The notes under the pieces were generated by a model. It saw nothing but the letters and a program-made list of their open reading frames with translations. It ran no database searches and had not been told where the DNA came from. From Eremomyces bilateralis CBS 781.70 (Eukaryota): DNA of 64,000 bases. Location of the stretch: assembly GCA_010015585.1 (NCBI GenBank), contig ML975169.1. One strand, given 5' to 3'. Both the position numbers and the translations under genes were made by a program. Shown here piece after piece: positions 7,179-58,469 of the stretch; position 1 is the first letter of the stretch; each line of letters begins with the position of its first letter.

Positions 7179-7407
7179 TGTCCCGAATGTCCGGTTGGCA
7201 GGAAAGCATGGTCATCTCACGCAAAAACGCGTAGCCTTGATGTTTGGCGGAGGAATAAGGCCCGAAGGGGGTATCTCGATAAAGAAATGCTATCTACGCC
7301 CATTGTCGGCGTCTGAATGCCGAACGTGCAGCTGCCAATTTGCCGCCCACGATCTAAATATGTCTTTTGAAGCCTCAGAAATTCCCATGCAAACACCTAA
7401 CCAACAA

Positions 7408-16644: not shown

Positions 16645-16958
16645 GGTCGCGAGAAGGATCTTGGAGAGGTTGAATTGCATAGGACTTCAATAACGCAAAC
16701 GAGCGATGAACCACACGCTTCGCGGAACAAATAAACCATCGTTTTTTGCAGTGCGTACCGTCAGCTCTTGAATTCATACCTGTATTGCAAAATTGCTACC
16801 CGCCGCCATTCACATCGAACACTGCCCTGCCAATTCTCTCACGTAAAAATAACTGAAGAACCCTTTTCCGTCGCGTCAAATGCATGGTCATTGCATTCGT
16901 GGACCAATTTCGCAAGCTTGCCTACACCAGTCAAATCAACCACTACTCCTGCAACACC

Positions 16959-19637
<2,679 letters not shown>

Positions 19638-20785: not shown

Positions 20786-21617
20786 TTAAAGCCTCCCCTC
20801 ATCCACCACGCCCCGTAGCAGCACCGCCCCGGGCCGCGCCATCCTCATCTTCCTCGCCAACGCGTCCCGCTCCCACCACCCCCACCCCCTCACCCTCTCC
20901 CTCCACCTCGTGCATACTGGGCAACAGCATGTGTTGTCCTCCCCTTTGGGCACGGATTGCCCCCCGAATAGGCCACATTTTTGATGGAACCATGTGTCCC
21001 CATCGGCAACATGGTGTCGTGGCTTCGGATGGTCACACGCAACCCACCTGACGTCGTGGTATCTGCCATCGCAGGCTACGCACAGCCTGTCGGATTCGTT
21101 AAGTAGGTTGACGTGCTCCCTCCGCTTTATGGGCCTGTCCGAGGGCGGCGCGCCTGCAGCAACTTCTTCTTCGTCGTCCTCGTCGTCCTCTCGTCCCCGT
21201 TTTTGTCTGCGCGACGTCGGTGACTGCTCGGGGTCGTCACGCCCTGCGTCTCGTCGACTGCGCATTGTTGGGGTTGATGGCGCGGCGCTGTCAGGCTTGC
21301 CTGCGACCCTTCCAGATCGTGGTGCGAGAGTAACTCATAGGGGGATCTGGATGTCGCATGTGGTATGCTTTTCCGATTGCCCGCGGTGTTATGCTCGGGT
21401 GGATGGCCTTGATCGTACGCCAGGCATCCGGGAGCACGACCCCTGGGAACATATCTTCAATCATGGATTCGTCGTCCTTAGAGATCCAGCCCTCAGGAGT
21501 GTCCTCCCTGACACATGGGGATGCTTCGGCGATGCTCTGTCTGGTGTCCAACATGGCGAGCGTGAGAGGGGGAGGAGGGGGTTTGTGATGGCCTGAAAGC
21601 CAGGAGGGGAGAAACAA
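20786..21617 (-). pseudogene. Orphan or degenerate ORF pair with a C-terminal PHD-finger-like Cys/His motif
   Basis: CVACD...WVACD...WFHQKC...CPVC in ORF 20786-21265. The upstream ORF 21291-21617 is in a different frame with no clean intron visible. Confidence 0.4.
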
Positions 21618-30035: not shown

Positions 30036-31583
30036 ATGAGAGACGTGTGTGCCCGGGACATTACTCGGGAGTCCCCTTATGAAGGGTCGAGGCAGGGGAA
30101 ATGGGACGGTCTGGGATTGTGGTGTAGAGTAGTGTATTGTTATGGCCATGATAGGCAGCTTCGTGGAGGAGACCTGAGATTCACGAAGGTCATTCTGAAC
30201 TTTGTATCATCGTCGTCTCAACTGGTCGAGCTGGCCATGGGATGGGAGACAGACGCCAGGGAGTCCCGATGACAGAGTTCTGGACTGAGTCTGTACGCAA
30301 TTATCTGGTGTCATTGGTCAATTGCTGGTCAAGGTTTGGGCCCTAAGGCTTGGAGATCCGTGAAACCAATAGAGTCCTGGTCGTGATTGGTCAATAACAT
30401 CCGGACCGGTCCTTCCTTCCACCCACTAACTGATATCGTTCCAGAAACTGTATTGTACTTGCCATGAATGTAATGTTATCCATCCATCTTCTGTATAACT
30501 GTTAGCCCTGATGCGATATGACACGCCTCGTCGTGGGAAGCGCCCGAAAATGCAGGAGGAGAGCCAAGTCTCAGACCGAGACGGTTTGGGGGCGTTTTCC
30601 CAGCTGGAGAGGCGCCGGACAGGGGCCCAATCCGCTCTAGCGCACGGCATGCTGAGTTGGCAGCCGAACGGGATGAGCGAGCAGCTTCATCCTGCGTCCA
30701 GCGCAAAAGGGCAACCTGCCTCTTGATTTCGTGTCGCATATGCCATTGACCCGTCGACGTTGCCGCTGGAGCATCATCGTGCGTATCGGCACACCGTGCG
30801 GTCATTTTCGCCGCTTTCTTCCCGTTCTCTCTGCTAGACGGTCGCTGCACGCGACCCCGGAACGTCCTCCGACATCCTCCTCTGCGACGCGCCTTTCGTG
30901 GATAATGTACAGGACATGCCGTCATTTGGCTTCGAGAATCTCCTGCTCCTCCGCATCTGCTCCATCTGCTCTAGCTGACGGTCGCCGATTCCTGCATTAT
31001 TTCGCGTGTGGCGGTGCGAGCGTCGACCCTGCAGGCCTCGCCAACATCTAGCAGCACGAGCGAGTGGTGAAGCTCCAGTTCTGCGGTTGGGAAACGAGGA
31101 TCACGACAGTCCAACCCGTCGCAAACCTCCGCAAATCGATTGCGCACTGGAAATTTCGCGCGTACAGAACACCAATCGTTCACTTCATGACCAGACCGAC
31201 CTCAAACCACGGTTTGCGAATCAATTGTGCGTTGTCCTCTCCTTAAAGCTCCACCTTAAAGCCATTCCCAGCCTCCTCAAAATCCCCAATTGCACCCCTG
31301 GTTCCTACTCCTCTGCACTACGCCCCTACAGCCACGACAATAATTTCCCCAACCACCTCAAGATCTCGCCGCGCTGGATTTTGATCGACCACGCCATGGA
31401 TCGACTCTGTTTGTTTTTGCTATTCACTAACACTATCTCTCCAGGCATTTCCTCATTCCCTGTCTCTCACGTTCCATCGTTGTACATGCCCTCCCATCCT
31501 AGATTCCTCTCGACATAGCGTCATTGAGGTCACACTGAAGGCTCGACCGAATTTTCCACCCCATTGCTAGGTTCGCGGTCACA

Positions 31584-34172
31584 TTGTCATCTCCGCGAGC
31601 CGCCGAATTCCTCACGTTGTTCAGCCCAACTTCCCGAGCTGTTCACGAGACCAACGACCGACACGTTTACGATCCCAACCCTCCCCATCAACGCCAGCAG
31701 GCAGGCCAATCTGCCCTCTCCCCGAACCACCGACACTCTCGAGTATCCAGCTCCTCCGGTAGCGTTTCTGTCGCCCTCCGTGGAACTCCCGCCCCCGAAG
31801 AGCGCCACAACCCTCGCCCTCGTTCGGTTTCCGTGAGCTCTCCTCCACTGCAAGCTCCTCCACCTCGAGCTCCTCCCACCGTCCGATTCGCGGATCCGGC
31901 GTCGAGCTCCGAACCTGGCCAGTGGGCTCTTCCCTCGGAAGCACGTCCGCGCCAGGTTCCTCGCACCTCCCGTCGCACCGCGTCGGCGATCCGGTGGGCT
32001 CTCGAAGTCGCGCTCCGTGGCCCACATCCTTTCACGTCGGTGGTTGAAGAGGAGGAAGCTTCCATGTCCGACATTCTTGCCGGTTCCGCAGGCAATGTTG
32101 GCCGAACTTCGAACGGCGGCCAACGGTCGTCTGCAGGGCACGGGCCTGTTCCGGTGCAAGGTGCGAGAGAACGAGGCCAATCCATGCCCGTGCCGCAGGC
32201 ACAGCGGGATCGTGGAATCACACCGCCGACGGAGATAATGCGGAGAAGGCAGGAACGCGAACGACAAAAAGTAGGGGCCGGGCAAGGCGGACTTGCTGCT
32301 GGCGTTGCTCAAGGTCAGTCTCCAACACCCGGACATGGCCCTGGAAAGGGCTCAGGCTTATATTCACCAGGACAAGGTGATAGAACCCGAATAGATCCTG
32401 CACTCCTGCCACAATCAGGACGGCGAGAGGAGGGATTTGTGGCCGCAGCTGCAGCCGCCTCTGCCCTAGGAAGAGAAGAAAGACCAGACCCATTGCACGT
32501 TCCCTCGGCTGTGGAGGACCGTCCTCCACCAGCTAGACAACGTCGCTCCTCACAACCGCAAACCTCCACACAACCACTTCCACATCAGCCTCCACCCCCG
32601 CAACAGACAACCCCATCAGCAGCCGCTCAGCCTCGTATCCCTCGATATCCAGGAGGTGCCGAAGTACCCCAATCAATACCCACTCCGGCTAGCCGGCTGA
32701 GAGACCCGAATGTCTCAACATTCCCCCATGCCTTTGAAAGATGGGAGCAGCTCTCCTCTCAATGGGAAGGGCAGACGCGATACTGGATCCGACGGCTGGA
32801 GAACAATTCCGACGAGCTGCGAAACGAGCCTCTCAATGTGGGGATCGCGCGGCAGATGCAGGATCTTACCGCTGCCGGTGCGAACTTATTCCACGCGGTG
32901 GTCGAGCTCCAACGACTGCGCGCCAGCTCCGAACGGAAATTCCAACGCTGGTTCACAGACGTTCGGGGCGAGTTGGAGCGGAACGAGGAAGTTCAAGCGC
33001 AGCAGCAGGTTGCGTTGGACCGCGAGCGTCGAGCTCGCCAGGAGCAAAACGCCATCGCTGCACGAGCGGAGGAGCAACGAGCCAACGTGGACAAAATGAA
33101 TGGGGAGCTCAAACGGGAGCTCAACATTGCCAAGGAGGAAGCGCGTCGGGCATGGGAAGAGCTCGGAAGGCGGGAGCAGGAAGAACGGGACCGGTGCAGC
33201 GAGATACGCGAAGGGCGGCCGGTCAACATCTGCGGCATCCAGATCTTCCCGACCAGTCAGATCATGCGGCAAGCGAGCCTTCGACGGGGCCAGGAAGGCG
33301 ACGACTACTCGATGGACCCAGGCCAGGAATACATGGAAGCCGAATACGTGTACAACGAAGGGGCCTCACCCACCGACACCGACCCGTTCGTGGAAGCCGG
33401 AAAACGACCGGCCCCACCGCCAGGGACCTTTTCCGCCGGCGTCTATCAACCGCAGGGCATCCAACCCTACGCGCCCGGCAGCACCCCCGCGTCCGGATCC
33501 ACCTCTCAAACCATCGTCCCCGCTCCGCAACCCCCTCCTCCCAGCTCCACTACCTCCCCTCCCACCGGCGCGACTTCCACCTCCTCCCAACCACCCTTCT
33601 ACACCCACCGCGACACCTACCCCACCACAGGCGCCTCCTCCGCCCCCTCCGACGTCCCTTCCTATATTGGCACCACCTCCGACGACCTTTCCGATGCCTC
33701 CGACGGCGGCGACCGCCACGACGAACCCACCGCTGATGACTATCTTTACGACGAGCACGGCCGCCTCCTCGTCGACGCCCACGGCCGCCCCCTCCCCGAC
33801 CGCCGCGGCCTGCGCGTCAGCACCGTCTCCGACGACCTCTCCGACGATGACGAGGATGACGTGCTTCGCGACGCGCAGCGTGAGCATGCACATCGCGCTC
33901 GCTACGGTAGCAGTGGGGCCGTACCCGGTAATTCCGGCGAACTCGCAGTGCCGACGACGCAGGGGTACGCGACGGCGCCGCCCAGCGCGTATGGGCGGCA
34001 GGCTGGCGGAGGCGCGCAGCAACAACAGCAGGCGGAGCAGCCGGATTATGAGGGGAGCGGGTATGAAGGGTGGGAGCGGGTGCAGCATCATTATCCGACG
34101 CGGTTGAGCGATGTGCCGGAGGAGGAGGACGAGCGGAGTCGGGCGAGTGGGCCGCGGAGTCTGGATATTTGA
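31584..34172 (+). CDS. Large conserved-looking fungal hypothetical protein with central coiled coil; true start uncertain
   Basis: 862-codon open frame with an ordered block FPHAFERWEQLSSQWEG...AGANLFHAVVELQRLRASSERKFQRWF...EEARRAWEELGRREQEER and C-terminal HHYPTRLSDVPEEEDERSR. A possible upstream exon starts at ATG 31396. Confidence 0.8.
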   Translation: MSSPRAAEFLTLFSPTSRAVHETNDRHVYDPNPPHQRQQAGQSALSPNHRHSRVSSSSGSVSVALRGTPAPEERHNPRPRSVSVSSPPLQAPPPRAPPTVRFADPASSSEPGQWALPSEARPRQVPRTSRRTASAIRWALEVALRGPHPFTSVVEEEEASMSDILAGSAGNVGRTSNGGQRSSAGHGPVPVQGARERGQSMPVPQAQRDRGITPPTEIMRRRQERERQKVGAGQGGLAAGVAQGQSPTPGHGPGKGSGLYSPGQGDRTRIDPALLPQSGRREEGFVAAAAAASALGREERPDPLHVPSAVEDRPPPARQRRSSQPQTSTQPLPHQPPPPQQTTPSAAAQPRIPRYPGGAEVPQSIPTPASRLRDPNVSTFPHAFERWEQLSSQWEGQTRYWIRRLENNSDELRNEPLNVGIARQMQDLTAAGANLFHAVVELQRLRASSERKFQRWFTDVRGELERNEEVQAQQQVALDRERRARQEQNAIAARAEEQRANVDKMNGELKRELNIAKEEARRAWEELGRREQEERDRCSEIREGRPVNICGIQIFPTSQIMRQASLRRGQEGDDYSMDPGQEYMEAEYVYNEGASPTDTDPFVEAGKRPAPPPGTFSAGVYQPQGIQPYAPGSTPASGSTSQTIVPAPQPPPPSSTTSPPTGATSTSSQPPFYTHRDTYPTTGASSAPSDVPSYIGTTSDDLSDASDGGDRHDEPTADDYLYDEHGRLLVDAHGRPLPDRRGLRVSTVSDDLSDDDEDDVLRDAQREHAHRARYGSSGAVPGNSGELAVPTTQGYATAPPSAYGRQAGGGAQQQQQAEQPDYEGSGYEGWERVQHHYPTRLSDVPEEEDERSRASGPRSLDI

Positions 34173-35959: not shown

Positions 35960-36601
35960 TCATTTCATACTCGGCGCCTTCCCGGACGGATCATCTTTGA
36001 TCGTCACATACCCCTCCTGTTCCCTCACCCGCTGCAACCACGCCTTCACATTCCCCCCGACCGCAAACCCCACCAGCTCCGCGAACTGGGTATACGCGAA
36101 CAGCGCGATGTCCGCGATCGTGTACATCTCCTCGACGAAGAACGTCTTCCCCTCCAGATGCGCCTCCATGGTGTCCAACGCGGCCTGCCCCCGCGTCTGT
36201 AGCCGCTCGCGCGTCTCAGCGCTCACGTTCTCCAGGCCGATCCAGTGGGTCGCGAACCGGAGCCCGGCGACGTACTGCTCGTGGCTGAACTGCTCGAAGA
36301 ACATCCAGCGCAGCACCTGAGTGACGCCGAGGTGGGTTGAGGGGAGGTAGGGCGTGTCTTTGGCAAGGTAGTAGAGGATGGCGCTGCTTTCGGGGAGGAC
36401 GGTGTGGGTAGCGTCGTCGAGGATGATGAGGGGGATGCGGCCGTTGGGGTTGAGTGCGAGATAGGCGGGGAGGCGAGTCTCGGCGGGGGTAGTGAGGAGG
36501 TCAAGGTCGGTGGTGTGGTAGGGGAGGCGGAGGTGGGAGAGGAGGAGGTGGACTTTGTAGCCGTTACCTGAGGGGATATTGGAGTCGTAGAGATGGAGCA
36601 T
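35960..36601 (-). CDS. Glutathione S-transferase (intronless)
   Basis: MLHLYD..SGNGYKV, YLALNPNGRIP, LPESSAILYYLA, WMFFEQFSHE, YTIADIALFAYT. Confidence 0.92.
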   Translation of the reverse strand: MLHLYDSNIPSGNGYKVHLLLSHLRLPYHTTDLDLLTTPAETRLPAYLALNPNGRIPLIILDDATHTVLPESSAILYYLAKDTPYLPSTHLGVTQVLRWMFFEQFSHEQYVAGLRFATHWIGLENVSAETRERLQTRGQAALDTMEAHLEGKTFFVEEMYTIADIALFAYTQFAELVGFAVGGNVKAWLQRVREQEGYVTIKDDPSGKAPSMK

Positions 36602-38245
36602 GGTGGCTTGCGGGATTCGGGATTCAGGGGATAGCTCGCAGGAAAGGACAAAGCTGTCGATTGAACAACAGACGGACTCAAATTGGAATTGGAACGGTTG
36701 GATATCTAGTACTCGGATGAAAGAGAGAAATGGAAATGGAGGTCTCGCGGTCGGAGAGCCGATCGCGTTGTACTTGTCTATGCCGCCAGGCCTGCCACGC
36801 CCTAGAGTAAGAGTACCTATCATGGCATTTCGAATTGTCCTATTCCATGTAAACCCTGACTTAGCATGTAGTAGGTAGTATGTAAGTAGTAGGTGCAACT
36901 GTCCAACACCACAACAACCCACTGTTCTGTCAGCGCTAGATCCTACAGTGCATTTTATTCCTATTTTCGTGAGACAGGTAACTATGTAGTAGAGTCTATT
37001 AGAGACTAACTGGAGAGGTTTTGCAACCTCGAAAACCATTTTACAACTCGATTTACAACTCCACAGAAAAAGCGGTTAATATCTCTATATACGGTTAGCG
37101 TATAAACCGAAATTTAAGCCTGAGGCAACAAGGCAACAAAAAGTTGTAAAAATTAATTTTAAGGCATCAACATTGTGGCTAAAGGCATCAAAATCTTTAG
37201 TTCCGGCCAATCAAACTTCACAAAAGTTTGTTAGCGCATTTACAACTGTGGATCATCAAAATTTACACCGTAAACTCCATTAGGACTGTGATGGATCAGA
37301 GGTCTGCAGACCTCTGAATTCAGGGCATAACTAACGCCTCGCACACTTTAGATAGATTCCTCCTTCATAGCAACAATTCAATGTTTGCCTCACGATTGGA
37401 GATTCCCTACAGTGAGACCCTTACAAAGATGCTGCGACACTGATCTCTCTCACTGGTTAATCAATAATAGGAATTCAGATCCTTTCAGTTCACAGCCGAC
37501 ATAAGCACCACCTTGATACTCCGTATGCCATTATCTCATTCGCAGTACTTCCTTAGCATTATCACTCTGTTCATTTAAAATGTTCTAAAAGTTAGGCCAA
37601 TGATGGCACCTCTTCTACGGTGGAAAAGCGCATCGGATCGACTTCAAAGACCGCCATGCAACAGTATCAGTACCAGTGAAAGTATTTCCAAAGTACCCGC
37701 AGAGTGCGATGATATCTATTCAAAATATTAAATACCGTACCTACGTACAGGATTTTTATTTTTTCGTGGTATGTAGCCCCGATAAATGCTAAACACGAAA
37801 ATATTGTGTACCTCTTGACAATACGATTCGAACCCCTGGTGCTGCCAGCTCAAGCCTCGTGTAGTTCACCGGAGAGGGGCTGCGACCAATATGTTCACAA
37901 CATCGTCAATTGCAGGACCAGTTTTGCTTGAGAAAACTGGCAAGTCGAGGGTGGACGGAATGGACAAGAGATTGCCAGCCTTGCGAGACAGTTAAAGAGC
38001 ATGGAAGACCCGTCATTGACAAATCAGGTTTGCTGGATTTCAATGACCGCCTCGCCCCGTTTCGTTTCGAGACTCTGTTGTCGATAGGGTCCCCTTTACC
38101 GTGATTGTCGGTATCACTTCGTTCATTTCATGTTAAGGATGGAATCAATGCAAGGGGAGACTGGAATCCCTTGCCGCATTGGGTGAAGATAGGTCGGCAT
38201 ATCTAGGAAGAAGGTCCTCTCGCCATACGCAGAAGCCAATGTCTC

Positions 38246-43006: not shown

Positions 43007-44787
43007 TTATTTGGCACTGTCCGGCCGTACAACCGTAACTCCCGCCTCCTCATCGTCTGTTTGAACGCTTGGCAAATCCTGCTTTTCCTCGACCCTCTTC
43101 AGCCCCTTATCCCTGATGAATACCATCAACGCTAAACAGCACCCCATCGCGCCCGCCCACAAATAGAACACAGATCTCGCTGCCGCAACATAGGCGTTGA
43201 GAACATGAATCTTCTGGTCTTCTGGGAGGCCAGATATGTCCGGCATTTCGAACACGGACTGCTTAATACTCTCAGCCATGTCCACCGGGATGCTCATGGG
43301 GATGTTCGACACCAGCGTGCTGGAGAAGATGGCCGATGCGATGGCCAGCCCGGCTGAGCCGCCGAGCGCGCGGATGAAGTTCCTCGCACTGATGACGATT
43401 GCCCGATCCTCCTTTGGACTATGGGCCTGTGCGGCCACCAAAGCTGTTTGAGATTAGCCGTCCGTTCAAGAGCACCACCCGTGGCTTGTGGCTGACTTAC
43501 TCGGTTGGAAGACCAGCCCGACTCCAACACCCTCTATGACGAGGATGAAGACGATGGCGACGACTGGCAAGGTGCGGTTGAACAGGCAGTGCAACCCAGT
43601 GGCTATGGTCCAGCAAATGTAGCCCAGCCATATGACCTCGCCGTATCTATTCATGCGTGAGATGTACTGGCCAGAGAGTGCAGAGGCAATGGCCTGCGGT
43701 ATGACGATTGGGATGAGAAGAGCTGCCGATGTGAGCAGGCCCATCTGTCGAGCGCTCTGGTAGTATATTGGCAAGTAGTAGAGCACACTGTAGAAGACGA
43801 TGCCGATGAGGAAGTTCTGGGTAAGCATTGCTGCCAGGGCTTTGTTCTTCCAGAGCCTTACTTGACCTTATCAGCGCAGCCTCATGGTATCGTATTATTG
43901 GCACTCACGAGGAAACATGGGCAGTCGGGCAAACTTCCACTCATTCACGACGAACATCGCCAGTAACAGCGAGCCGATTGTCAGCATGGAGATGACCATT
44001 GGACTTGACGTCTGAAACTGCGTCCCAATCCCAGAAATTGGAATCAGAAGCACAATAGTGCCACCTGAACTCAACAGGATCCCCGCCCAGTCGATCTTCT
44101 TTAGCTTCGTCAAAACCGGCTCCGGGGGAATGGTCTGAGGTGGCAGCAGGAAGTACAGGAGCACAGCTACTAGGATGGCCAGTGGCGCGATGAACCAGAA
44201 GGTTGCTCGCCATGTAGAATTTCGAGTGAAAGCTGCCGCGACGAAGGGGCCGATAGTGTTACCTAGCCCAACACAGGAGCCGAGAATGCCCTGGTATCTT
44301 CATGCACACTCAGTTAGTACGGTACGCTGGAGAAATCATATAGGCATACTGACTTTCCACGTTGTTCCAGTGTCGTAACATCAGACACAATCATCATGAC
44401 CAACGCCATAATACCCCCGTTGGCAAGACCCGAAATACCCCTGAAGGCATACAGCTGTACCCCCGTCTGGGCAAACCCGCATAGCAGGTCGCCGAGCCCC
44501 AACAAACAAAGACATGAGATGAGGATGACCTTCCTACCCAGAATGTCCGACGCCCGGCCATAGAGCACCTGGAATGCCGTGTTGGCGATGAGAGACGATG
44601 TTCCGGCCCAGACGATGGTCGAAGAACTGTTCAGCTCTCTGCCAATGGTGGGCAGCGCCACGGCAATGGAGTTCTGGTCGATGTAGGTGATGAGGAGAGC
44701 TGAAGCCAGGGCGGCAAACACCACCATCAACCGGCTCCCTGTCAGGATGTTGGTTTGGTCATGGAGGGCATGCTTCTCCTCTGCCAT
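43007..44787 (-). CDS. MFS drug:H+ antiporter (DHA2, 14-TMS type); multi-exon
   Basis: LHDQTNIL..SRLMVVF, IDQNSIAVALPTI, LYGRASDILGRK, MMIVSDVTTLEQRGKYQG, KKIDWAG, YYLPIYYQ, RNFIRALGG. Confidence 0.9.
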
Positions 44788-44963
44788 GGCTGCGTCTTTG
44801 TCAGCTGGTTCAGCCTATCTGCTGCTAAGTGAGCAGCCAAAGAACCAGGTAGGTTATAAGAAAGGAAAGGCATATCTTGCAATGTTGCTCGGCACTGTAA
44901 TCGGAGCCACGAAGGACCGTCCTGGGCCATCCCAAATCCACAGTGGTGACTTACATGCCGTGT

Positions 44964-44980: not shown

Positions 44981-45128
44981 AGACTACCATCCTCAGCGGA
45001 GCAATTCTGAGAGCCTGGACATGGAGTTTACAATAGCACAACAGATAAGGAAGCCAACCCGGATTCAGGGAAGAATCTACGGGGTTCAAGCGATTCTACG
45101 AACCGACGCACCTCGACTACCGCCCAGC

Positions 45129-45875
45129 ATGACTAGCCTCAAGATCCAAGATCACCCTCAATACCAAGCCTCCATCGCCGCCGGCTTCGGCCACCGCCTC
45201 GGCTGGGGCTCCCGGCCGGCGCTCCTCCTCATCGACGTCTGCGTCGCCTACTACCAACCCGGCTCCCCGCTAGACATCACCCACAACCCCTCTGGCGCCG
45301 CCAGCGCACCCTCCATGTGCCGGCTCGTAGCAGCGGCGCGTGCAAGTGGCGTCCCCGTCGTGTGGGCGCAGGTACGGTACAACCACCCGCGGCTGCGCGA
45401 CGGGGGCGTTCAGGCGGCAAAGACGAAGACGATCCGTGCGTGGCAGGACGGCGACCCGCGCGGCCTGGATGCGCTGATGCCTGGGCTGGAACCGGCTGAG
45501 GGCGAGACGACGGTGCTGAAGCGGAACCCATCGGCGTTCTTTGGCACGACGTTGGCGACGGAGTTGCGGCTGCTAGGGGTCGATACGCTGGCAGTGTGTG
45601 GGGTGAGCACGAGTGGATGTGTGAGGGCGACGGCGATGGATGCCATGTGCTATGGTTTTCGGCCGATGGTGAGTAGGGGTTGTGGTGACGATCCCGAGTG
45701 ACTGGTTTGTGATAGATGCTGACTGTTGCTTGTTTGATAGGTGGTCAAGGAGGCGTGTGGGGACCGGTCGGAGATGATACAGCAACAGAACTTGTTTGAC
45801 ATGGACGCGTCGATTGGGGATGTTGTGGAAGAGGCTGAAGCGATAGCGCAGCTGGGGAGGTCGTGGAGTTTGTGA
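45129..45875 (+). CDS. Isochorismatase-fold cysteine amidohydrolase 1 (maleamate/N-carbamoylsarcosine amidase-like); 2 exons
   Basis: GFGHRLGWGSRPALLLIDVC, LKRNPSAFFGT, GVSTSGCVRATAMDA give an intact Asp-Lys-Cys triad. Intron 45669-45740 leads to EACGDRS. Confidence 0.92.
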
Positions 45876-46084: not shown

Positions 46085-46450
46085 TAGGAAATAAGTGGAA
46101 CTGGGCCCTGCCGGAATGGAGATGGTGCCAGGACCCCGGCCAGTCTAGTTTCCCTATCTATTGGGTCCAGATACAGAACAGACTATCTTTCACAAACCTC
46201 CAAGACAGCCACACCTCGCCGAGATGATACCGCGTACACCTATCGACTATCTACCAAATGGCTGGACTGCTCGTCCTCACATCTTCACGGTGGTCAGACT
46301 CGTGTATAAACACGAGCACGACCGACCGTGGCTCGGGCAATTCGGCAGCCGACATTGTTGAATCTGCTTGTCATAGCTGCCACTACTTGCAACATTCACT
46401 CTACTTCGCTGGGTCCTAAACAGACAGACCACCGTACAGAAGTTAACACC

Positions 46451-48106
46451 ATGTCCGACACGACTGAGAAGCACCAGGCGAAGAGCGTCGGTGCCGTCCG
46501 CGATGTCGAGACCGGCTCGTTTCTAGATGGCACGGTTGAGTCAATCGGGATGGACGATGTTCAGGCGCCCAAGGTCGGGGGTTCCATCTGGAAGTTGCTC
46601 TCCAGCGTGGGCGTAGAGATGCGCGGTGCCGAGCCTGTACCGGTTGAGAAGCGGACCGACACTCAGTTCGCCAACGTCTTCTACATCTTTGCGACGTCCA
46701 TGACGAGCTTGCTGCCGTGAGTGACATACGTTTGACTATGATATTGGAATCGACGACTGACAGAGACTAGAATCGGTATCGGCTCAGCTACTACCCTTGG
46801 CTTTGGTATGTCACTGAAGGCTGCGGCATGCATGATTGTCTTCTTGCAGTTCTTCTTTGGCCTACCGACCGCTTACATCGTGACGATTGCTCCGTTGACG
46901 GGCATGAGACAGATGATTCAGTCCCGATACTGCTTTGGGTACGTGCTCATCCCACCCCTCTTTCATTGTCATCCCCGGGGAGTGTCCATGTAGCTCACAC
47001 TTCTCAGGAAATACTGCAATTTCTTAACCTCTGTCATCGTCACTCTTACCGTCGGCGGCTTCGCCGTCACTGGCAGTATCAATGGGGGCCAGTGTCTCGC
47101 TGCTGTCAAGCCCGGCACCCTTCCCGTTGAGGGCGCCATATCCATCATCATGGTCATTTCCCTCGTTATAGGCTTCATGGGCTACCGTGTCATGCATCTT
47201 TTCACCCGCTGGGCATGGATCCCGAGCTTGCTGGCCATTTTCATTCTCGTTGGCGCTGCCGGCGACCAACTCTACCAGCAAGGCGCTCCTCGTGCTCATA
47301 GTGCCAAGGACTACATGGGCATGGTCGCCTTCGCTGCTGGCAACATGGTGACCTGGAGCAACGTGGCGGGAGACTATGCGTGCTATATGCCCCCCACAGC
47401 GCCGCGCTTTCGCATCGCCATGTACTGCCTGTTCGGAATCGCGCTGCCCTTCTCGCTTCTCATGACCCTCGGCGCGGCCATTGGAGGCGCTGTACCCAGC
47501 ATCCCCGCCTGGGCGGCCGCCTATGAACTGCACGGCATCGGCGGCGTCATCGGCACCATCCTCACCGGGCGACTGGGCGACTTCGGACGCTTCATCCTTG
47601 TCATGTTGGGTATGTCGGTCCTAGCGACCTGCGCGCGAGACGTTTATACCATATCTTTCAACATCCCGGCGTTCGCACCTATTGCGCGCAAGGTGCCGCG
47701 TGTGGTCCTCGCGATTCTGGCCACGGCCGCCATCATCGGAATCGCCATTCCCGCATCTAAGTCCTTCGTCAGCTCTGTGACGGCCTTCCTCAGCATCATC
47801 GGGTACTACGCCGGCGCGTCCGTGACGTGCTTCCTGACCGAGTGGCTGTACTTCCGCAAGGCCGACCCGGCGAGCTTCGATCCGGCAATCTGGGACGACG
47901 GGCGGGCGCTGCCGACGGGGCTGAGCGCGCTGGCGTCGGTGCTGATTGCCTGGGGCTTTATTATTCCTTCCATGAAGACGACATGGTACACGGGGCCGAT
48001 TGCGGAGAAGACAGGCGATCTTGGGTTCGAGTTTGCAGTGGTGATTGCGCTATTGGCGTATATTCCTATCCGGACGGCGGAGATCAAGATCAGGGGCCGG
48101 CTCTGA
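46451..48106 (+). CDS. NCS1 purine-cytosine permease family transporter (Fcy2/Tpn1-like); 3 exons
   Basis: GVEMRGAEPVP, TGMRQMIQSRYCFG, WSNVAGDYACYMP, FLSIIGYY, WDDGRALPTG, WYTGPIA..GDLGFE. Confidence 0.9.
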
Positions 48107-48462: not shown

Positions 48463-49711
48463 ATGGCATCGCAAGCAGGGCAGATTCGCCAGCCCCTCCA
48501 ACCGTCCATCCGTCCCATCCTAGACCCTGAATACGTAACCCTCCACGACTCACTCGTCCAATACGTCGAGCCTTTAGAATCGAAGCCATGGGACCCTGAA
48601 AATCGCAACAAGCCTTCGGCATTGGCACACGCACAGCCAAAGCTCGTCGACGTCGGCCAGTGCTTCGACAAGGTCCTCGGAAACGTGCAGCTCCGCGTGT
48701 TCGTGCCGGAGGGCGAGGCGCCGGCCAAAGGATGGCCGTGCATGGTGTGGTATCACGGCGGCGGATGGGTGAATGGTGGTTTGGGGAGTGATAATGGCTT
48801 CTTGAGCCATGTTTGTCGATGTGAGTCTGGACATGAGAGACGGCTAGAGAGAACACAATGGATTAACTAGTCCCCAGATACGCGATGCATGGCCATCTCT
48901 GTCAATTATCGCCATGCACCCGAAGATGTGTACCCAGCTGCCCTAGAAGACTCGTTCTGGGGTTTTCAGTGGATAAGAAATAATGCAGCTACGCTCTCCA
49001 TCGACATTTCACGCCTGGTCCTGGGAGGATGTTCAGCGTACGTCAAACCATCTTCTATCTCTCTCATGACCCAATGGCTGATCCTCAGTCATAGCGGCGG
49101 CAATCTTGCTGCAGTCATGTCCCTCAAGGCTGGCCTTGCGAAGCTATCTCCAGCACCCGTATTCCAGCTCCTCATCTGCCCCGTAATAGACTGTACGGCG
49201 ACGGTGAACACGGCGTGGGCAACTACGCAACACTCGCCGTTCCTCACTCCCGGGCGCATGACCTGGTACCAGGACCGGTACCTCCCGAATCCATCGGACC
49301 GGGCCAATTGGGACGTCTCGCCGTGCTTCGCGCCGCCAGAGACGCTGGCATTGAGCCCTAAGACATTCGTCGCCATTGCCGAGTGCGACTTGCTCGCGCC
49401 CGAGGGGCTTAGGTATGCTGAGCTTTTGCGCAAAGCAGGCGTTGAGGTCGAGACAAAGACCTACAAAGGCGCTACGCACTCGATTCTTGTTCTAGCTGGG
49501 TGAGTTCACATTACCTGCGTCATAACTAGGCACATCTGCGTATGAACGCTGCGGTATGCTAGGATCTTTTCATTTTGCTGACCACTGCCCGGCAAATAGA
49601 ATCCACCAAATTGGACAGCAGTTGGTGCATGACGCCTGTGCTGTGATCGCTCGGGAGCTGGGCACTGAGTACGACCCGTCAACCTCGCCAATTCTCTCCC
49701 AGAGCGGGTGA
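48463..49711 (+). CDS. HSL-family alpha/beta hydrolase (esterase/amidase); 4 exons
   Basis: YHGGGWV oxyanion motif, SVNYRHAPE, GCSA|GGNLAA nucleophile split by an intron, AECDLL and YKGATH. Confidence 0.9.
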
Positions 49712-50088: not shown

Positions 50089-50808
50089 ATGTCCTCGGCT
50101 ATCAACCCTTCATTCCATCCAGCGTACGCAAAAGAATGCGGTGACCCGTCCCGAACGAAGCGCCTCGGCTTCGGAGCATGCCCGGCCATCTTGTTTGTCG
50201 ACGTCTGCGAAGCCTATTTCGCCCCGTCGTCACCACTGTGTCTAAGTCCCGAGACAGTCGAGCGGTCCTCGACAACCATCGCCGCCCTCCTGCGAGCCGC
50301 CCGCAAGACTGGCATCACGAATAAGGCCGGGGAGCCGGACGACCTCCCCATCATCTACGCCCAGACGCTATATACTCACCCCGATCTTCGCGATGCCGGC
50401 CTCCAAGCCCAGAAGACTGGCCACGCCTCCTTATTCTCCAGCCGAAATCCCGAGCGTCTCAGCGGTGTACCTCACAACCGGCCCGCCCTACAACCGGCGC
50501 CGAGTGACCTAGTTCTGGCAAAGAAATACCCCTCACCATTCTTCGGTACGAACTTGGCCACGCAGCTGACGGCCTTGGGGGTAGACACCCTCGTGATCGC
50601 TGGGTATATGACGAGCGGATCCGTCAGAGCCGCAGCGCTGGACGCGATGCAGGCTGGTTTCCGGGCCATGGTGGTGGCTGATGGGTGCGGTGATCGCGGC
50701 GAAGAGACGCACTGGGCGAATCTCATGGATGTCGGCGCCAAGTATGGTGATGTAGTAACACTGGAAGAGGCGGATGCTGGATTGAAGGCTGGATGGGGGC
50801 GGTCATGA
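50089..50808 (+). CDS. Isochorismatase-fold protein 2 (nucleophile position Ser instead of Cys), intronless
   Basis: RLGFGACPAILFVDVC, KKYPSPFFGTNL, GYMTSGSVRAAALDA, CGDRG, DVGAKYGDVV. Confidence 0.9.
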   Translation: MSSAINPSFHPAYAKECGDPSRTKRLGFGACPAILFVDVCEAYFAPSSPLCLSPETVERSSTTIAALLRAARKTGITNKAGEPDDLPIIYAQTLYTHPDLRDAGLQAQKTGHASLFSSRNPERLSGVPHNRPALQPAPSDLVLAKKYPSPFFGTNLATQLTALGVDTLVIAGYMTSGSVRAAALDAMQAGFRAMVVADGCGDRGEETHWANLMDVGAKYGDVVTLEEADAGLKAGWGRS

Positions 50809-50877: not shown

Positions 50878-53381
50878 TCATGGTCGCCATCCAGTCCAGC
50901 CTAGGTTGACATAACCTTGTACAATATCGGCAAAGTCGTTATCAAACGGTTCTCGGAGAAGTGCGGCTGTGGTCGATTCGGGGGAAGGCAGCGTCCCGAA
51001 GCCGTCTTCATGGTAGCCAGCAAATGCTTCAGAGCCGTCAATGGTCTGTTGACTAGGATGTGCGGTCCTACTATCCACCGCTGTATGGTTATGAAGGTAC
51101 GTCCCGTGCGCGGCCGCATCGCTGAGAAGACGCAAATTATCGGTGTAGTTATGTGGTCCCTGGAAGCCATCATGGGCTGGCTGTTGAGTTGTATCATTGA
51201 CTTCTCCGTACATATTTGCCGTCGATCCATGGCGTCTGGGAGCCGTCTCATGGTGAATATTGTGATCCATCTCTGGCGGCTGCTCGTTTCTCTGGGCCTG
51301 CGGCGATCGAGTGGCATCGGGTGAGTGGCCGACCGATGCAGAAAGGAGTGCCTCATGCGTTGAGACCTCATTCAGCAACGGGCTGCCCTGAGAAGGTGGC
51401 CGATTGATGACTTTGCGGAGGATGTCCACCCACTCCGAAGCCGTCGGCCACTTGTCCTCAAACGTGGAGAGCACCTCGAGCGACCGGTGAACTATCTTGG
51501 CCGCCGAGGAGGCGACGCTGGGGCAGAGCCGCGGCCACTTGTACACGTAGCAGGCCAGGGAGCCGCAGATATAGGTACAAAAGGCCAGCATAGCGGGGAA
51601 TCCGTCATCGGCGGAGCGCAGGCAGAACCACACATCGATGGCCTCATAAAGGTCGGCAACGTTGGTGAAGAGCTCATGGGACATTTGCTCCCAGAATTTT
51701 GCCAGCGCCGGGTCGGATCGGCTTGGTGACGGGAGCAGCTGAGCGACGATGCTCTTGAGGTAGGTCCGTCGGAGAACAATGTTGTTTAGCCGCGTGATAG
51801 TTATTATGGACAGGTATGCAAGGTCGACGTGCTCGGCCTTGTAGCCCCTTAGGTTCCAGGCAGACCACCTATGCTGCACCGGGATGTTATCCTCCCAGTC
51901 CCGGAGAGTTTCCGAGATCCGCTGGTAGTGGCAGTTCGGCTCCCACGGGTTCGAGTCCAAGGTAGGCGAGTCGTGAGTATCGCCGTAGGCATCTCGTGCA
52001 ATCATACCCCAAAGGTCGTGCGCTTGGATGAGGGTCGCAAAGAGAGACCTGGTAGGAAGTGAGGTCAGAGAGCGTTTGCGCTGCGCTGGTGATGTTCCCT
52101 CTAGTGCAGCCCGCTCAGGGGGCACTCGGCCAAATGCAAAGTCATTCTCCTCACCGGGTAGAAGCGTGGTGATGTCTGATTTGGCAAACGAAACGGGCAG
52201 ATGTTGTTGTGTGTATAGGTTGTCGTGGTTCTGGATGACCCAAAATGTTCTCCTCGCGCGCTCTTTGTTGACAACTTCGTCTGCGGATGCCCCCTGTGGG
52301 AGAATATATGTTTCTTCACGATGGAGGCGTAGTAACCCAGCCATTCTGACGGCAATTCCCATGTTGATGGCGCTCCTCTCGCGGTCAGCTCTGCCCCAGT
52401 CCGCCATGCCAAGTAAGAAGAATGCCTGTGTGTTCTCTAGACTGGGCTTCCACATCTCATCGGCGATCATGACATGGGCAATGTCAATGAAGAACTCAGA
52501 TGCTCCTTGGCTGCTACCGAACCGTTGGCAGAGCTCCGGGGCAAAACGAGCCGAGATGCCGAGCATGCTCAAAAGAAGAAAGGCATTGACGGAGTCCCTG
52601 TCGTTCGTCATCTGCTCTAGGAAGAGAGCTTTGGGGATGAAGCCTATCCCGCGGTTAGCACTGTGTCGGGTTAGAAGTTTGCTCGCCTGTGCACATACCG
52701 ACTTGAAGGCAAGTTGTCAAGAAGACACGGCAGCCTTGCATTAGCTCTTCGTGGGGTGGAAGTAGGTTCCAGATATCGGTGGCAGAGTAGATCTCCACTT
52801 TCCGAGCTACAGATGGCGAGAGTAGGTTCTGAACCCTAGTGATGGAGTCACTGTTCGTGCTGTAAGTCCCAAGGTCGCCACGCCAAACTTTCGGTGATGG
52901 AATACCTTGTGAAGGTCATTGGCGCCTCATTCGATCTGAAAAAGGGCTCATCAGCGTTGTCGCCAGACATGAAGAGTACTAACCATACACTGTCGATCCA
53001 TTGCTTACCATAGACCCCGGTTCTTGAGGACTTGTGCGTTTGATACGAAACTAGCGACGTAAGCCTTTAATAGGAAATAGCATGTCTGTAAATAAAGAAT
53101 ATCTTACCTTTCTATCCACAGTATCACCTCTGACAGCAAGAGCGCTTGTTGTCTGTCATCAGTCTACTACCTTCTTGAAGGTGTACAATACTCACCACGA
53201 CTTGGTATCTTCTGGCCCTGCTCGACGACATGGAATACAGGGAATGCGGCCTTCATGCTGCACACATTTCATCCGCAGACGACGGCATCTGTATGGAATG
53301 AGTAATGATCGTTAGAGTATGGGGACAAGGTAAGAACCTCCTACAGGCAACCGCCGACCTCTTTGGGCGCGGCATCTCCAT
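50878..53381 (-). CDS. Zn(II)2Cys6 transcription factor with fungal-specific TF middle domain; multi-exon
   Basis: Spliced N-terminus RSAVACRRCRRLRMKCVQHEGRIPCIPCRRAG...C; PSLENTQAFFLL, MGIAVRMAGLLRLHRE, ERARRTFW. Confidence 0.9.
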
Positions 53382-54137: not shown

Positions 54138-55897
54138 CTACGCTGATCCTTGTCCCAGCGCCGGAAGTCCCATCGCCGCCAGCTTGGTGTTCACCTCATC
54201 TAGATGGTCCATGAAATGGCCTTGGAGATTGTCCCAGAACTCGCCTTCATACCCGGGGATTTCTGTGATAATTCAAGTCAGAGGGTTTGTGGCCAAGTAA
54301 TTGAATTGAGGGATTTTGGCTTACGCTTGATGGTCGGGTTCCTCTCCAAGGCAAACTTGGTCAGACTAAAGTGGTTGTTTAGGTGGAACATGAAGCCTAT
54401 TCACAAAAGTTAACATTGGCATCCGTGTACCATTCGTAGAGACAACGAATCACTCACTTAAAGCATCCTTGCCGGCGACCTCATGTTCCAACTGCTTCGT
54501 CGTCGCTTCTTTCCACGCCCCGTAGGCATCCCCATGTGGCATGTACGAATTCTCGCAGCTCAGACAGCCCTCCTGCACGTCACGCACAGACCCGTGGTAC
54601 TCGCCATAGATCATGCCGAGCATCTCGGTCGACATGTTGCGATGGTAGTAGGGCGGCCGGTACGTGTCGAGCGCCGTGATATGCTTGGCCGTGTACACGG
54701 CGAATTCTGACAGCGCCACCTTGGGCGTCTTGGACTTGGCGATGAGGACGGTGTAGATGGTCGGGTCGCACTGCTCCTTCATCGCGCAGGCGAGCGGCAC
54801 GAACTTCTCCATGGCGTACTTGAAGGGCACGTAGCTGCCGTGCCATGCCACCACGTCAAAGGGTGTGTGGTTCTGCTTGTACGCGAAGAGCTGGCCCGCG
54901 AGTTTGTATGTGACTATCAACGGCATTAGTTTTCAGATTGGGATACTTCGGGTGCAGATTTCTTACTCTCCCACTTGGACTGGTCCATGTCAAATGAAGC
55001 TACGGGGTACTCGAAGTCGCGAGGATGCGCCAGGCCATTAGAGCCGATTACACCGAGGTCGGGAAGCTCGAAATGGGAGCCAAACACCTCGTGCACATAT
55101 CCTCTCGAGGGACCGTCAGGTAGCGACACCTTCCACCGAAGTCCAGCCTGGATGACACACAGCTCACCCGGCCTGACCATAAGCCTACCTAGCTCAGTCT
55201 GGATTTCGAGTCGGCCGACCTGCGGCAAGATCAAGAAGTCGCCGTCGTTATTGCAGAACGCCTTCTTCTCCATCGAAGCGTTGCACGAGTACAGGTGCAT
55301 TGCCAAGCCCTCTTTTAGCGTCGGATCGCCCCAGCCGCCTATCGTCTTGAGTCCGTGGATGAAAGTCACCTGGTCCTCCTCCTCGGGGTACTCTAGGGGA
55401 CCCCATTCGTATGTGAGAGGGGTAAACTGGACGTTCGGGTTCTGCGGGGAGAAGCATGCTTCAAGCTGGGGCTGGTCAGCCAAGATGCTCTCGCGGGAAG
55501 TGAGGGCGTATTGGACTTAAATCGGGGCTTGCTGGCATGGGTCGGGGCCGCGCGTGTGCAACGGCGGGCCGTATGCGGTACATCCAGACATGTTGGAGTG
55601 TGTCGCGGTACGATGCAAATGGAGTCCCGTTAAGCTGTTCTGAGTATAGGTCATATGGGCATCGCTGCGGCACGTTCCGTCCAGGCTCTGGAAGGGCATC
55701 TGGTCTTTCATGGCGTAAGTCAAATCCGGTTCTGCGAATGGTTCTTCAACTCACACAGCTTCTGAGGAGAAGTAGTTACCAAAGCCGAGCTGGTATCTGT
55801 ACGGGTCATTCTCTTTCGGCGGAGTTGTTCGCGACCCAGCGGCAGATGCACCGAAGGTCTTGGGTACCGATGGCGTCAAGATGGAGGCGTCACCCAT
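54138..55897 (-). CDS. Homogentisate 1,2-dioxygenase-like (HgmA-fold) ring-cleavage dioxygenase, divergent; multi-exon
   Basis: DPYRYQLGFGNYFSSEA, PQRCPYDLYSEQLNGT, WMYRIRP, NNDGDFLILPQ, FELPDLGVIGSNGLAHPRDF, PFDVVAWHG, RPPYYHRN..E and PHG iron-ligand motifs. Confidence 0.92.
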
Positions 55898-56492: not shown

Positions 56493-58469
56493 ATGGCTAT
56501 TACTTTGAGTAACGATCAACTTCCCGCCTTTGCTCAATCGCCTATACGAGTGGGTGCAATACTCCTCGTGCTAGGTGTTGTTCTTTACCAGATCCTAAAG
56601 AGGTCTTTCAAGAGATACCCATGTCCCCTACCGCCGTCACCACCGGCAGAGCCGCTCTTGGGCCATTTCCGAACATTGCCCCCCGAGAATGCGCACCTCA
56701 AGCACATGGAATATGCCAAACGATTCAGTGGGTGACATTTGGAAACATTTATCATACGGCGGCTAAGACCAACCCAGATTCGGACATTGTTTACTTCAAT
56801 GTTTTGGGCAACCACACCATTGTCTTGAATAGCCAGAAGGTTGCCAATGAAATCCTCGACAAGCGAGGCGCCAACTATCAGGACCGGCCTGGCTTCGTCC
56901 TCTTTGATGTCATGGGATGGGGTCTCACCCTGACCTTTATGCCGTATGGCCCGCGCTTCAAGCTTCACCGCTCGGCGCTGCAGCATGGCTTCACCAAGAC
57001 GGCTATCGTCAATTATCGGCCCATCCAAGAAGACGAGGCGAGACAGGCCATAGCCCGGATTCTGAAGCGACCCACGGAGTGGGATTTCTCTCTACGGAGG
57101 TAATCAAAGCCCATATTATGGCAACCGGCACGGAGTAATAACACTGTCTAGGTTCGCATCTGCCATCGTCTTGCGCATCGGGTTTGGCGTCACTGTGCGG
57201 TCTGACGATGACCCGTACATCAAGATTGCCATCGACGCAAACATGGCGACGGCAAAGGGTGGAAACCCGGGAGCTGCCCTCGTTGACTACATGCCCCCGT
57301 GTAAGCAGGTCACGGCGAAGCCGCCCCAGTCGATCAGCACCTCTGACTAGAACGTCGCAGTCCGCTTCATTCCCGAGTTTCTCAATTTCTCGGGCACTCT
57401 ACAGCACGCCCGAAAATGGCGATGGGCCATCAAAAACCTCCATGATATCCCCTTTGCAGCTATTAAGAAGGAGTTTGTGAGTTGGTCGCGAGATGCACAC
57501 AGAAGAGCTGGTTTGACCCAAGGTCTAGGACGAGGGAACTGCGAACCCATCATTTGCTTACTCACTCCTGAGCAAATACACGCAAAATGAGGAGAAGGGA
57601 ATCCCCAATCAGCTTGAAATGAAGGACATCCAAGGAGCTTCCGGATCCGTGTTCATCGCTGGATCAAACACCGTAAGTACACGGTCCATACATTTAGCAA
57701 CGTGTGAACTAATCGACGCCCAGACTTTGGCCACGACAACCGTTGCCCTTCTCAACATCATGCGAAACCCTGAGGTATTCATGAAGGCGAGGGCGGAACT
57801 CGACCGCGTGGTTGGTGAAGACCGACTCCCAAGCCTGGCCGACCGCCCCAACCTGAGGTATCTTGACTATGTGGTTGAAGAGACCACTCGATGGCGGCCG
57901 CTATCACCTATCGGTATCCCGCATAAGTCCCTGAAAGATGACACCTACAATGGGATGTTCATCCCGGCAGGGTAGGTGAACAGCCGATGGTGTGGTGGTG
58001 ATGAGTCCCCGACTGACGCTTGCTATGACAGAACATTCGTCTACTACAACACGTACGCCATGAGCCGCGACGAGAATGTTTACAAGAACCCTGAAATCTT
58101 CAACCCTGATAGATACACGCCAAAGGAAGAGGGCGGCGATGGGGAGCCCTTCCTCGTCGGTCCATTCGGATTCGGCCGCAGGTAAGACAACATCGACCGC
58201 GCCAATACGGTTTTCTCCTTACTAACATCAGCATTAGGATCTGTGTTGGACGGCATCTCGCCCAGGCGTCCGTATGGATCGCTGTTGCAACTATGATTGC
58301 AACGACGGACATCTCGAAGCCTGTAAGTCCAGACGGAAGGCCGATTGATCAGCCGATCGTGTTTAGCACCGGGTTGTCGAGCCATCCTGGAAAGTTTGAT
58401 GTCAATTTCCAGCCGAGGTCTGAGAAAGCTACTAGGCTGCTTGCTCAGGCTGTCGGTGATGCCCAATGA
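56493..58469 (+). CDS. Cytochrome P450 monooxygenase (OrdA/CYP64-like clan by appearance); multi-exon
   Basis: N-terminal TM helix, PPSPP hinge, AGSNT I-helix, EETTRW (ExxR), FNPDRY and the FGFGRRICVG heme motif split by an intron. Confidence 0.95.

Follow-up and report, generated by a model that had tools for sequence, protein, structure and literature searches.

A fungal homogentisate dioxygenase-like enzyme with an altered pocket, encoded in a conserved P450 and amidase-type gene cluster, probably acts on a para-diol other than homogentisate

The window analysed here, a 64,000-nucleotide stretch of contig ML975169.1 of the Dothideomycete Eremomyces bilateralis CBS 781.70, encodes a homogentisate 1,2-dioxygenase (HGD, HmgA) family protein, P0001, within a compact gene cluster. 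The best explanation of its sequence is that P0001 is an active non-heme Fe(II) dioxygenase with the HGD fold, from a fungus-specific paralog lineage that would no longer recognise homogentisate. On balance, we favour the view that it cleaves the ring of another para-diol and feeds a hydrolytic lower pathway. Automatic annotation applies the name "homogentisate 1,2-dioxygenase" to all proteins of the lineage, and such a blanket label would overstate the capacity of fungi for tyrosine catabolism and hide an uncharacterised route of ring cleavage.

Results

An HGD-fold enzyme with an intact iron site and an altered pocket

Joining six exons across GT-AG introns reproduces P0001 exactly, and P0001 is the deposited E. 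bilateralis protein. A Pfam scan of the exon open reading frames (ORFs) found HgmA_N and HgmA_C, and only HgmA domains. The protein matches human HGD (1ey2) with an E-value of 6.4e-31 in phmmer, and its AlphaFold2 model, built with 105 relatives, has a mean predicted local distance difference test score (pLDDT) of 92.8 and superposes in Foldseek on 1ey2 and 4aq6 with target-normalised template modelling (TM) scores of 0.93-0.94 at 35-39% identity. The likeness to HGD is one of homology and not of chance.

The phmmer pairing with 1ey2 leaves the iron site intact. Human YYHRNCMSE pairs with YYHRNMSTE and TPHG with MPHG, such that human His335, Glu341 and His371 are retained as H365, E371 and H401, and these ligands are conserved in the aligned relatives (H365 and H401 in 105 of 105, E371 in 104 of 105). 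The surrounding pocket is changed at several positions: FDHADPSIF pairs with KEQCDPTIY, which replaces human His292 with Gln322; GHYEAK pairs with GEYHGS, which retains Tyr350 as Tyr380 and replaces Glu351 with His381 and Lys353 with Ser383; and GGGSLH pairs with EGCLSCE, which replaces human His365 with Glu395. An earlier sequence-only reading of positions 54530-54790, which fall inside exon 4 (54913-54458, minus strand), had noted the iron-ligand motifs YYHRN, TE and PHG together with the altered EQCDPTIY (His to Gln), GEYHGS and GCLSCE (His to Glu), and the alignment with the human enzyme bears out all of these observations. According to the available portions of bioRxiv 10.64898/2026.06.02.729205 and PMC4019311, His292 of HGD hydrogen-bonds the distal hydroxyl of the substrate, while His365 is hydrogen-bonded to Glu341 and takes part in proton transfer. 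The tyrosine equivalent to Tyr380 is said to bind the carboxylate of homogentisate (PMC11634970). A substrate that does not carry the acetate group would be in keeping with the absence of a basic residue at human position 353.

The locus is covered by a single public sequencing run, X1, whose type ('RNA?') is a guess and whose coverage depth was not used to rank genes. X1 contigs splice the dioxygenase introns exactly at the predicted borders for four of the five introns among the joints listed, and also splice introns of the neighbouring P450 gene (seven GT..AG joints, 56727 to 58236) and of the neighbouring Abhydrolase_3 hydrolase gene (48820>48878 and 49037>49095). Intron 2 of the dioxygenase gene (55459-55516) contains an in-frame stop. 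A single X1 contig of 4915 letters takes in the dioxygenase gene, the 600 bp between the genes and the beginning of the divergent P450 gene (54967-56727), and reflects either overlapping transcripts or some DNA in the run.

A fungal clade apart from canonical HmgA

A search of 1.84 billion representatives returned 379 relatives at E <= 1e-30, and the canonical DH.DPS and G.SLH motifs are found in most of those that are full-length. Trees of 130 rows (FastTree) and 105 rows (IQ-TREE, quick mode) separate these relatives into three tiers. Tier 1 contains the canonical H...K/R...H proteins of bacteria, animals, protists and fungi. Tier 2 is a highly conserved ascomycete clade with His322, Arg383 and Glu395 (H...R...E), together with basidiomycete relatives. 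Tier 3 is a fungal "Q-superclade" with Gln322 (support 99-100) which has four subclades and includes P0001. Within it, P0001 falls in a core clade of nine rows with support 100, in every row of which Q322, C/L323, Y380, H381, S383, C391, C394 and E395 are found. We refer to the subclade of the window's dioxygenase and its close orthologs as clade A. Both alignment and phylogeny against HmgA place P0001 apart from the canonical H...K...H enzymes. A 2025 comparative study noted that Pezizomycotina have several ancient clades of the HGD type (PMC12420386).

The taxa of tier 2 include Aspergillus sections Nigri, Flavi, Fumigati and Nidulantes, Penicillium rubens/chrysogenum, Talaromyces, Fusarium graminearum and Pleosporales. 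The available text of Lubbers et al. 2021 (PMC8336404) and its supplementary Fig. S4 give the same taxon set for the clade of Aspergillus niger MhdA (NRRL3_10111), an enzyme reported there to cleave methoxyhydroquinone to a methyl ester, and on these grounds we equate tier 2 with the MhdA clade. The length of tier-2 proteins, approximately 490 residues, is consistent with the 55.5 kDa stated for MhdA. If this identification is correct, the whole Q-superclade would be without a characterised member.

The two histidine substitutions are widespread. Of the 120 exon 4 homologs listed, 117 have Gln at position 322, two have His and one has Leu, and at position 395 104 have Glu, 14 have Gln, one has Val and one has Asp; Glu or Gln at position 395 is common to all non-canonical fungal clades, the probable MhdA clade included. 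The substitutions reported by the sequence-only reading are therefore real, but are not peculiar to this gene. As Gln extends across the Q-superclade and Glu is found in the probable MhdA clade, neither change can by itself mark the specificity of the gene, as had been proposed. Because the histidine losses are clade-wide, the distinguishing marks of the gene are instead His381, C391 and C394.

Several lines of evidence indicate that P0001 is probably no longer an HmgA. The TIGR01015 hmgA equivalog model has a cut-off of 510.75 bits, and P0001, while matching over its full length (E 1.5e-135), scores 452.2 bits; the range is 454-486 for four further proteins of the Q-superclade, 544-571 for tier-2 (H/E) proteins and 538.5-704 for canonical-type proteins. 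In the 19 canonical-type rows of the alignment, His292 and His365 are present in all, and position 353 is K or R except in one row with E. Exophiala oligosperma and Knufia peltigerae each carry a clade-A protein, which falls in the 90% cluster that also holds the ortholog from Exophiala spinifera, alongside a canonical-type protein (DHPDPS, GGASLH). Similarly, Pleurostoma richardsiae carries a clade-A protein and a tier-2 (H/E) protein, and Pleurostoma, Halenospora, Mollisia and Coleophoma each have a tier-2 member in addition to a clade-A or clade-A-related protein. The tyrosine-pathway genes hppD, fahA and maiA are absent from the window ORFs scanned and from a second cluster locus, the 151.8-kb contig L001, although such linkage is common rather than obligatory. 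The subclade position, the model score, the coexistence with canonical HmgA and this gene content together lend indirect support to the suggestion of the sequence-only reading that the substrate is not homogentisate.

Clade-A proteins P0003-P0009 share 80-86% identity with P0001 across Dothideomycetes, Eurotiomycetes (Chaetothyriales) and Sordariomycetes, and their species distribution is patchy. Horizontal transfer of the cluster may lie behind this high identity between classes; a comparable degree of conservation in the neighbouring H...E clade (65-85% identity to P0218 among 119 other matches listed) weakens the argument for transfer. A scan of prokaryotic genomes with P0001 gave 27 pattern matches, none of them a relative, and in the ESM Atlas the dioxygenase and the P450 matched only generic 'homogentisate 1,2-dioxygenase' and 'P450' clusters.

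A conserved P450-amidase gene cluster

The dioxygenase gene lies in a cluster at 43.0-58.5 kb of the window (Table 1), in the order major facilitator superfamily (MFS) transporter (-), isochorismatase-family iso2 (+), NCS1 permease (+), Abhydrolase_3 (+), isochorismatase-family iso1 (+), Zn2Cys6 regulator (-), dioxygenase (-) and cytochrome P450 (+). The P450 and dioxygenase genes are divergent and share an upstream region of approximately 600 bp; PDB matches narrow the family of the P450 only to CYP1/2/17-like. The Abhydrolase_3 protein falls under the cut-offs of the NCBIfam LipP1/HSL models and matches the carboxylesterases Est8 and EST2 in the PDB, making it a candidate esterase or formamidase.

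Table 1. Positions of the dioxygenase gene, its active-site codons and the other cluster genes in the window, and of orthologous genes at two further loci
Feature	Position	Strand	Remarks
HGD-family (HmgA-like) dioxygenase gene	54138..55897	-	491 aa, protein P0001
Dioxygenase exons (six, stop included)	55897-55755, 55704-55517, 55458-54967, 54913-54458, 54396-54325, 54262-54138	-	
Active-site stretch of dioxygenase	54534..54773	-	holds all codons Q322 to H401
Q322 codon	54773-54771	-	human H292
H365 codon	54644-54642	-	Fe ligand
E371 codon	54626-54624	-	Fe ligand
Y380 codon	54599-54597	-	human Y350
H381 codon	54596-54594	-	
S383 codon	54590-54588	-	human K353
C391 codon	54566-54564	-	
C394 codon	54557-54555	-	
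E395 codon	54554-54552	-	human H365
H401 codon	54536-54534	-	Fe ligand
Cytochrome P450 gene	56493..58470 (ends approximate)	+	Pfam p450 on two exon ORFs
Zn2Cys6-type transcription factor gene	50878..53312 (main ORF 50878-52716; upstream exons approximate)	-	Pfam Fungal_trans
Isochorismatase-family iso1 (P0121, 239 aa)	50089..50808	+	Pfam Isochorismatase
HSL-type alpha/beta hydrolase (Abhydrolase_3)	48463..49503	+	Pfam Abhydrolase_3 6.9e-44
NCS1-family (purine/cytosine-type) permease	46310..48106	+	Pfam Transp_cyt_pur; TIGR00800 ncs1 under cut-off
Isochorismatase-family iso2	45021..45875 (ends approximate)	+	Asp, Lys and Cys positions retained
MFS transporter gene, four exon ORFs	43007..44814	-	Pfam MFS_1 on three ORFs
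L001 regulator ortholog	12405-15149		position and orientation as in window
L001 Abhydrolase_3 ortholog	16580-17787		
L001 MFS ortholog	18137-19930		
L001 iso2 ortholog	20164-20947		
L002 MFS ortholog	16-429		
L002 iso2 ortholog	687-1429		

The association of the P450, regulator, iso1 and iso2, HSL-type hydrolase, MFS transporter and dioxygenase is conserved across fungal classes. L001 carries the divergent P450, dioxygenase, regulator, iso1, Abhydrolase_3, MFS and iso2 genes; its dioxygenase is 70% identical to that of the window in the best segment and 91% identical over exon 4. A 5.3-kb locus, L002, carries MFS, iso2, dioxygenase and P450. The EQCDP, GEYHGSVR and GCLSCE motifs are kept in the dioxygenases of both loci. 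An alignment of the P450/dioxygenase intergenic regions of the window and L001 gave no evident conserved block. A further locus, L003, was rejected as a clade-A locus, as it encodes an H...E-type paralog. In all seven species for which both numbers were at hand, the iso1 ortholog lies within 1-6 accession or locus-tag numbers of the clade-A gene (one in Clohesyomyces aquaticus, two in Exophiala spinifera, Podospora aff. communis and Rhinocladiella similis, four in Xylariomycetidae sp. FL2044 and Meristemomyces frigidus, and six in Pleurostoma richardsiae), and in further iso1/dioxygenase pairs the contigs of the two genes have equal lengths (in Podospora conica, and in a pair at 17,106 bp). 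Literature searches found no paper describing the cluster or the Q-superclade.

Both isochorismatase-family proteins have N-carbamoylsarcosine amidohydrolase as their best PDB match (26st for iso1), followed by 3ot4/3uao and 4l07/4l08 at E-values of 1e-15 to 7e-22. We take the latter structures to be maleamate amidases from the breakdown of nicotinate and nicotine. The automatic Joint Genome Institute (JGI) name 'maleamate amidohydrolase' is attached to 12 of 80 iso1 matches. The two proteins are 44% identical to each other and differ at the catalytic cysteine, which is retained in position in iso2 (STSGCVRA) and is Ser in iso1 (TSGSVRA). Among the homologs of iso1 (P0122-P0173), the fungal ones all have another residue in place of this Cys (Ser, Ala, Asn, Gly, Asp or Glu), while prokaryotic relatives keep TSGCVRA, and the fungal proteins conserve a different Cys two residues past the catalytic Asp (DVC.AY). 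The iso1 protein may be a pseudo-enzyme or perform non-amidase chemistry.

Three further features of the window lie outside the cluster. At 930-1460 (+), towards the opposite end of the window and unlinked to the cluster, an exon ORF encodes Dioxygenase_C and part of Dioxygenase_N of an intradiol ring-cleavage dioxygenase. A 371-residue ORF at 35960-37075 (-), 7 kb outside the cluster, has the glutathione transferase domains GST_N_2 and GST_C_2. An open frame of 877 residues at 31539-34172 (+) has no Pfam match and occupies the GC-richest part of the window (0.63), where long ORFs overlap on both strands.

Discussion

Proposed function

In the pathway that we propose, the P450 would hydroxylate a precursor of the phenolic or pyridone type and so give a para-diol, which the dioxygenase would bind through a phenolate on Fe(II) and cleave at the bond beside that hydroxyl, as HGD and MhdA do. 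MhdA cleaves beside the methoxy-bearing carbon, and by the logic of MhdA and its partner esterase OmeA, P0001 would cleave beside a heteroatom-bearing position to give a similar acyl derivative to be split by the hydrolases of the cluster. The ring-fission product would be an amide, an N-formyl amide or an ester, hydrolysed by the alpha/beta hydrolase and the Cys-containing amidase iso2. As the partners are amidase-like, a nitrogen-bearing ring is the most economical guess, and the class of substrate we favour would be a nitrogen-bearing hydroquinone analogue such as 2,5-dihydroxypyridine, which would yield N-formylmaleamate, or aminohydroquinone, which would yield an amide of the maleylacetamide type. 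By analogy, a nitrogen in the substrate is plausible but somewhat less likely than not, and 2,5-dihydroxypyridine in particular is a rather doubtful candidate. The sequence-only reading had suggested a ring nitrogen or the loss of the acetate side chain, and this has circumstantial backing in the missing basic residue at position 353 and in the two amidase-like hydrolases of the cluster.

More speculatively, fungi might have built a 'maleamate-type' pathway of their own for N-heteroaromatic or amino-aromatic rings, with an HGD-fold enzyme in place of the unrelated bacterial dioxygenase NicX, which we consider unlikely. The P450 would then make 2,5-dihydroxypyridine (or aminohydroquinone), the clade-A dioxygenase would open it to an N-formyl amide or amide, the HSL-type hydrolase and iso2 would free formate and ammonia, and the Cys-less iso1 would have acquired a new, non-amidase role. 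If the substrate is indeed a nitrogen-bearing ring, this would be the first dioxygenase-based route for cleavage of pyridine or aminophenol in fungi. The nicotinate route of Aspergillus nidulans is reportedly non-dioxygenolytic.

A number of observations weigh against this account. The class of substrate is proposed from gene neighbourhood and analogy, and searchable literature yielded neither biochemical data nor an assigned substrate for any member of the Q-superclade. With Tyr380 retained, the substrate may yet carry an acidic side chain. Of the hydrolases, iso1 has the tightest linkage to the dioxygenase, but it is without the catalytic Cys and so is perhaps no amidase, and neither a maleate isomerase nor a maleylacetate reductase is present in the cluster. 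The NCS1 permease, which hinted at an N-heterocycle, is missing from L001 between the hydrolase and MFS genes (17787-18137). Linkage of iso1 to the dioxygenase also has exceptions: the Thozetella iso1 homolog among the matches listed is on a different contig from the dioxygenase, and no Microdochium iso1 homolog is among the matches listed. The equation of tier 2 with the MhdA clade draws on taxon lists rather than on the sequence of MhdA. Finally, one of the X1 contig pieces listed (54967-55704) still includes intron 2, which could reflect intron retention or an unspliced precursor.

Alternative explanations

One alternative is that P0001 is an alkoxy-hydroquinone dioxygenase of the methoxyhydroquinone type, like MhdA, with the Abhydrolase_3 protein as the counterpart of OmeA and the isochorismatase-family proteins unrelated or accessory. 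Both MhdA and the Phanerochaete chrysosporium enzymes PcMHQD1 and PcMHQD2 are members of the HGD family that act on methoxyhydroquinone, MhdA is adjoined by a co-induced esterase gene, the window and L001 have a conserved HSL-type esterase in common, and P0001 has Glu395 in common with the probable MhdA clade. However, P0001 stands outside the H...R...E clade that matches the published taxon list of MhdA (Aspergillus, Penicillium, Fusarium and Pleosporales), and Pleurostoma, Halenospora, Mollisia and Coleophoma hold a member of that clade besides their clade-A or related protein. Moreover, the conserved partners are two amidase-like genes and a P450, and the cluster in the window has no FAD monooxygenase of the vanillate-hydroxylase type. 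We therefore regard this explanation as unlikely.

It is much less probable that P0001 is a genuine HGD with a drifted second shell, in which Gln and Glu have assumed the hydrogen-bonding roles of the histidines. The full-length match to TIGR01015 and the retention of both the iron triad and Tyr380 would agree with such an enzyme, and a replacement is conceivable in this class of fungi, as a 2014 survey (Greene et al., PMC3914699) gives, in its available text, hmgA orthologs or xenologs in just one Dothideomycete. Yet the score is under the equivalog cut-off, the residues in question are invariant (His292 and His365) or nearly so (basic 353) in canonical-type rows, two species have a canonical-type HmgA alongside a close ortholog of P0001, and tyrosine-pathway genes are missing from the cluster here and in L001. 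Equally improbable is a role as a tailoring or ring-opening enzyme in the biosynthesis of a secondary metabolite, rather than in catabolism. A P450, an MFS transporter, a cluster-specific Zn2Cys6 regulator and hydrolases are typical of fungal biosynthetic clusters, and the patchy distribution across classes would also fit. Against this, no polyketide synthase (PKS), nonribosomal peptide synthetase (NRPS), terpene synthase or prenyltransferase domain was detected on the ORFs scanned at 40.8-62.9 kb of the window, or in the 7.7 kb past the P450 in L001, a region with an FMO-like monooxygenase gene (5624-7474) and, after it, housekeeping genes. The reading that we prefer remains a dioxygenase for a para-diol other than homogentisate, with hydrolytic steps to follow, and the compact and conserved cluster of seven genes makes the substrate of clade A directly testable.

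Comparison with known systems

Canonical HGD (human 1ey2/1eyb and Pseudomonas putida HmgA, 3zds/4aq2/4aq6) has the same two-domain fold and His/Glu/His iron ligands as P0001, and its O2-dependent cleavage beside an Fe-bound phenolate is the chemistry to be expected of P0001. It differs from P0001 in the three substituted positions (His292 to Gln, His365 to Glu and Lys353 to Ser), and P0001 has a sub-cut-off score and no tyrosine-pathway neighbours. Other HGD-like proteins have also retained the iron triad while their lid or pocket residues were altered. Among these are PcMHQD1 and PcMHQD2 (Kato et al. 2024), which prefer methoxyhydroquinone according to the available text of a review (PMC11634970), and PDB entry 9pz4 ('homogentisate 1,2-dioxygenase', 496 residues), the best PDB match of both large exons of the window's gene (E-values of 7e-36 and 9.2e-64). 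The nearest library representative of 9pz4 is a protein of the polypore Obba rivulosa, and unlike P0001, 9pz4 has His at position 292 (DHMDPS), Gln at 365 and a different lid; among the papers listed by a literature search, none concerned 9pz4 as a structure.

In gene content, the cluster resembles the bacterial maleamate pathway, in which, as set out in the available text of PMC6346535, NicX/Hpo is the 2,5-dihydroxypyridine dioxygenase, NicD/Nfo the deformylase and NicF/Ami the maleamate amidase. Both combine a ring-cleaving Fe(II) dioxygenase for para-dihydroxy rings with an alpha/beta hydrolase and an amidase of the isochorismatase family. In contrast to the bacterial pathway, the window's cluster has a dioxygenase of the HGD fold rather than of the NicX fold, no maleate isomerase and an iso1 without the catalytic Cys. 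No homology of P0001 to the NicX family was found, as its domains and fold are those of HgmA/HGD only. The resemblance is an analogy of how the two would work and not membership, and any activity of P0001 on 2,5-dihydroxypyridine would be an analogous replacement of NicX. A transcriptome paper on nicotine in Aspergillus oryzae mentions no homogentisate dioxygenase.

MhdA offers the closest parallel. Like P0001, it is an HGD-fold fungal paralog; it occurs beside a canonical HmgA, as clade-A proteins do in two species, and a hydrolase for its ring-fission product is encoded nearby, where the cluster of P0001 has the candidate Abhydrolase_3 protein; the available text of PMC8336404 describes the neighbouring, co-induced omeA gene as required downstream of MhdA and its product as a 'carboxylesterase'. 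MhdA cleaves a hydroquinone other than homogentisate, as is proposed for P0001, and its presumed clade has the same Glu at human His365. P0001 differs from that clade in having Gln for His292, Ser for Arg/Lys at position 353 and the pair Cys391/Cys394, and the conserved genes around it encode a P450 and a pair of isochorismatase-family proteins, in contrast to the vanillate hydroxylase pathway of MhdA. As MhdA, PcMHQD1 and PcMHQD2 had already been published as HGD-fold enzymes for substrates other than homogentisate, a new specificity for the fold, as the sequence-only reading had it, is not the novelty of this locus. What appears to be new is the clade, its Cys/His signature and the conserved P450-amidase cluster. 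If our proposal is correct, P0001 would be the second case, after MhdA and OmeA, in which an HGD-fold enzyme cleaves a ring beside a heteroatom to give a hydrolysable acyl derivative.

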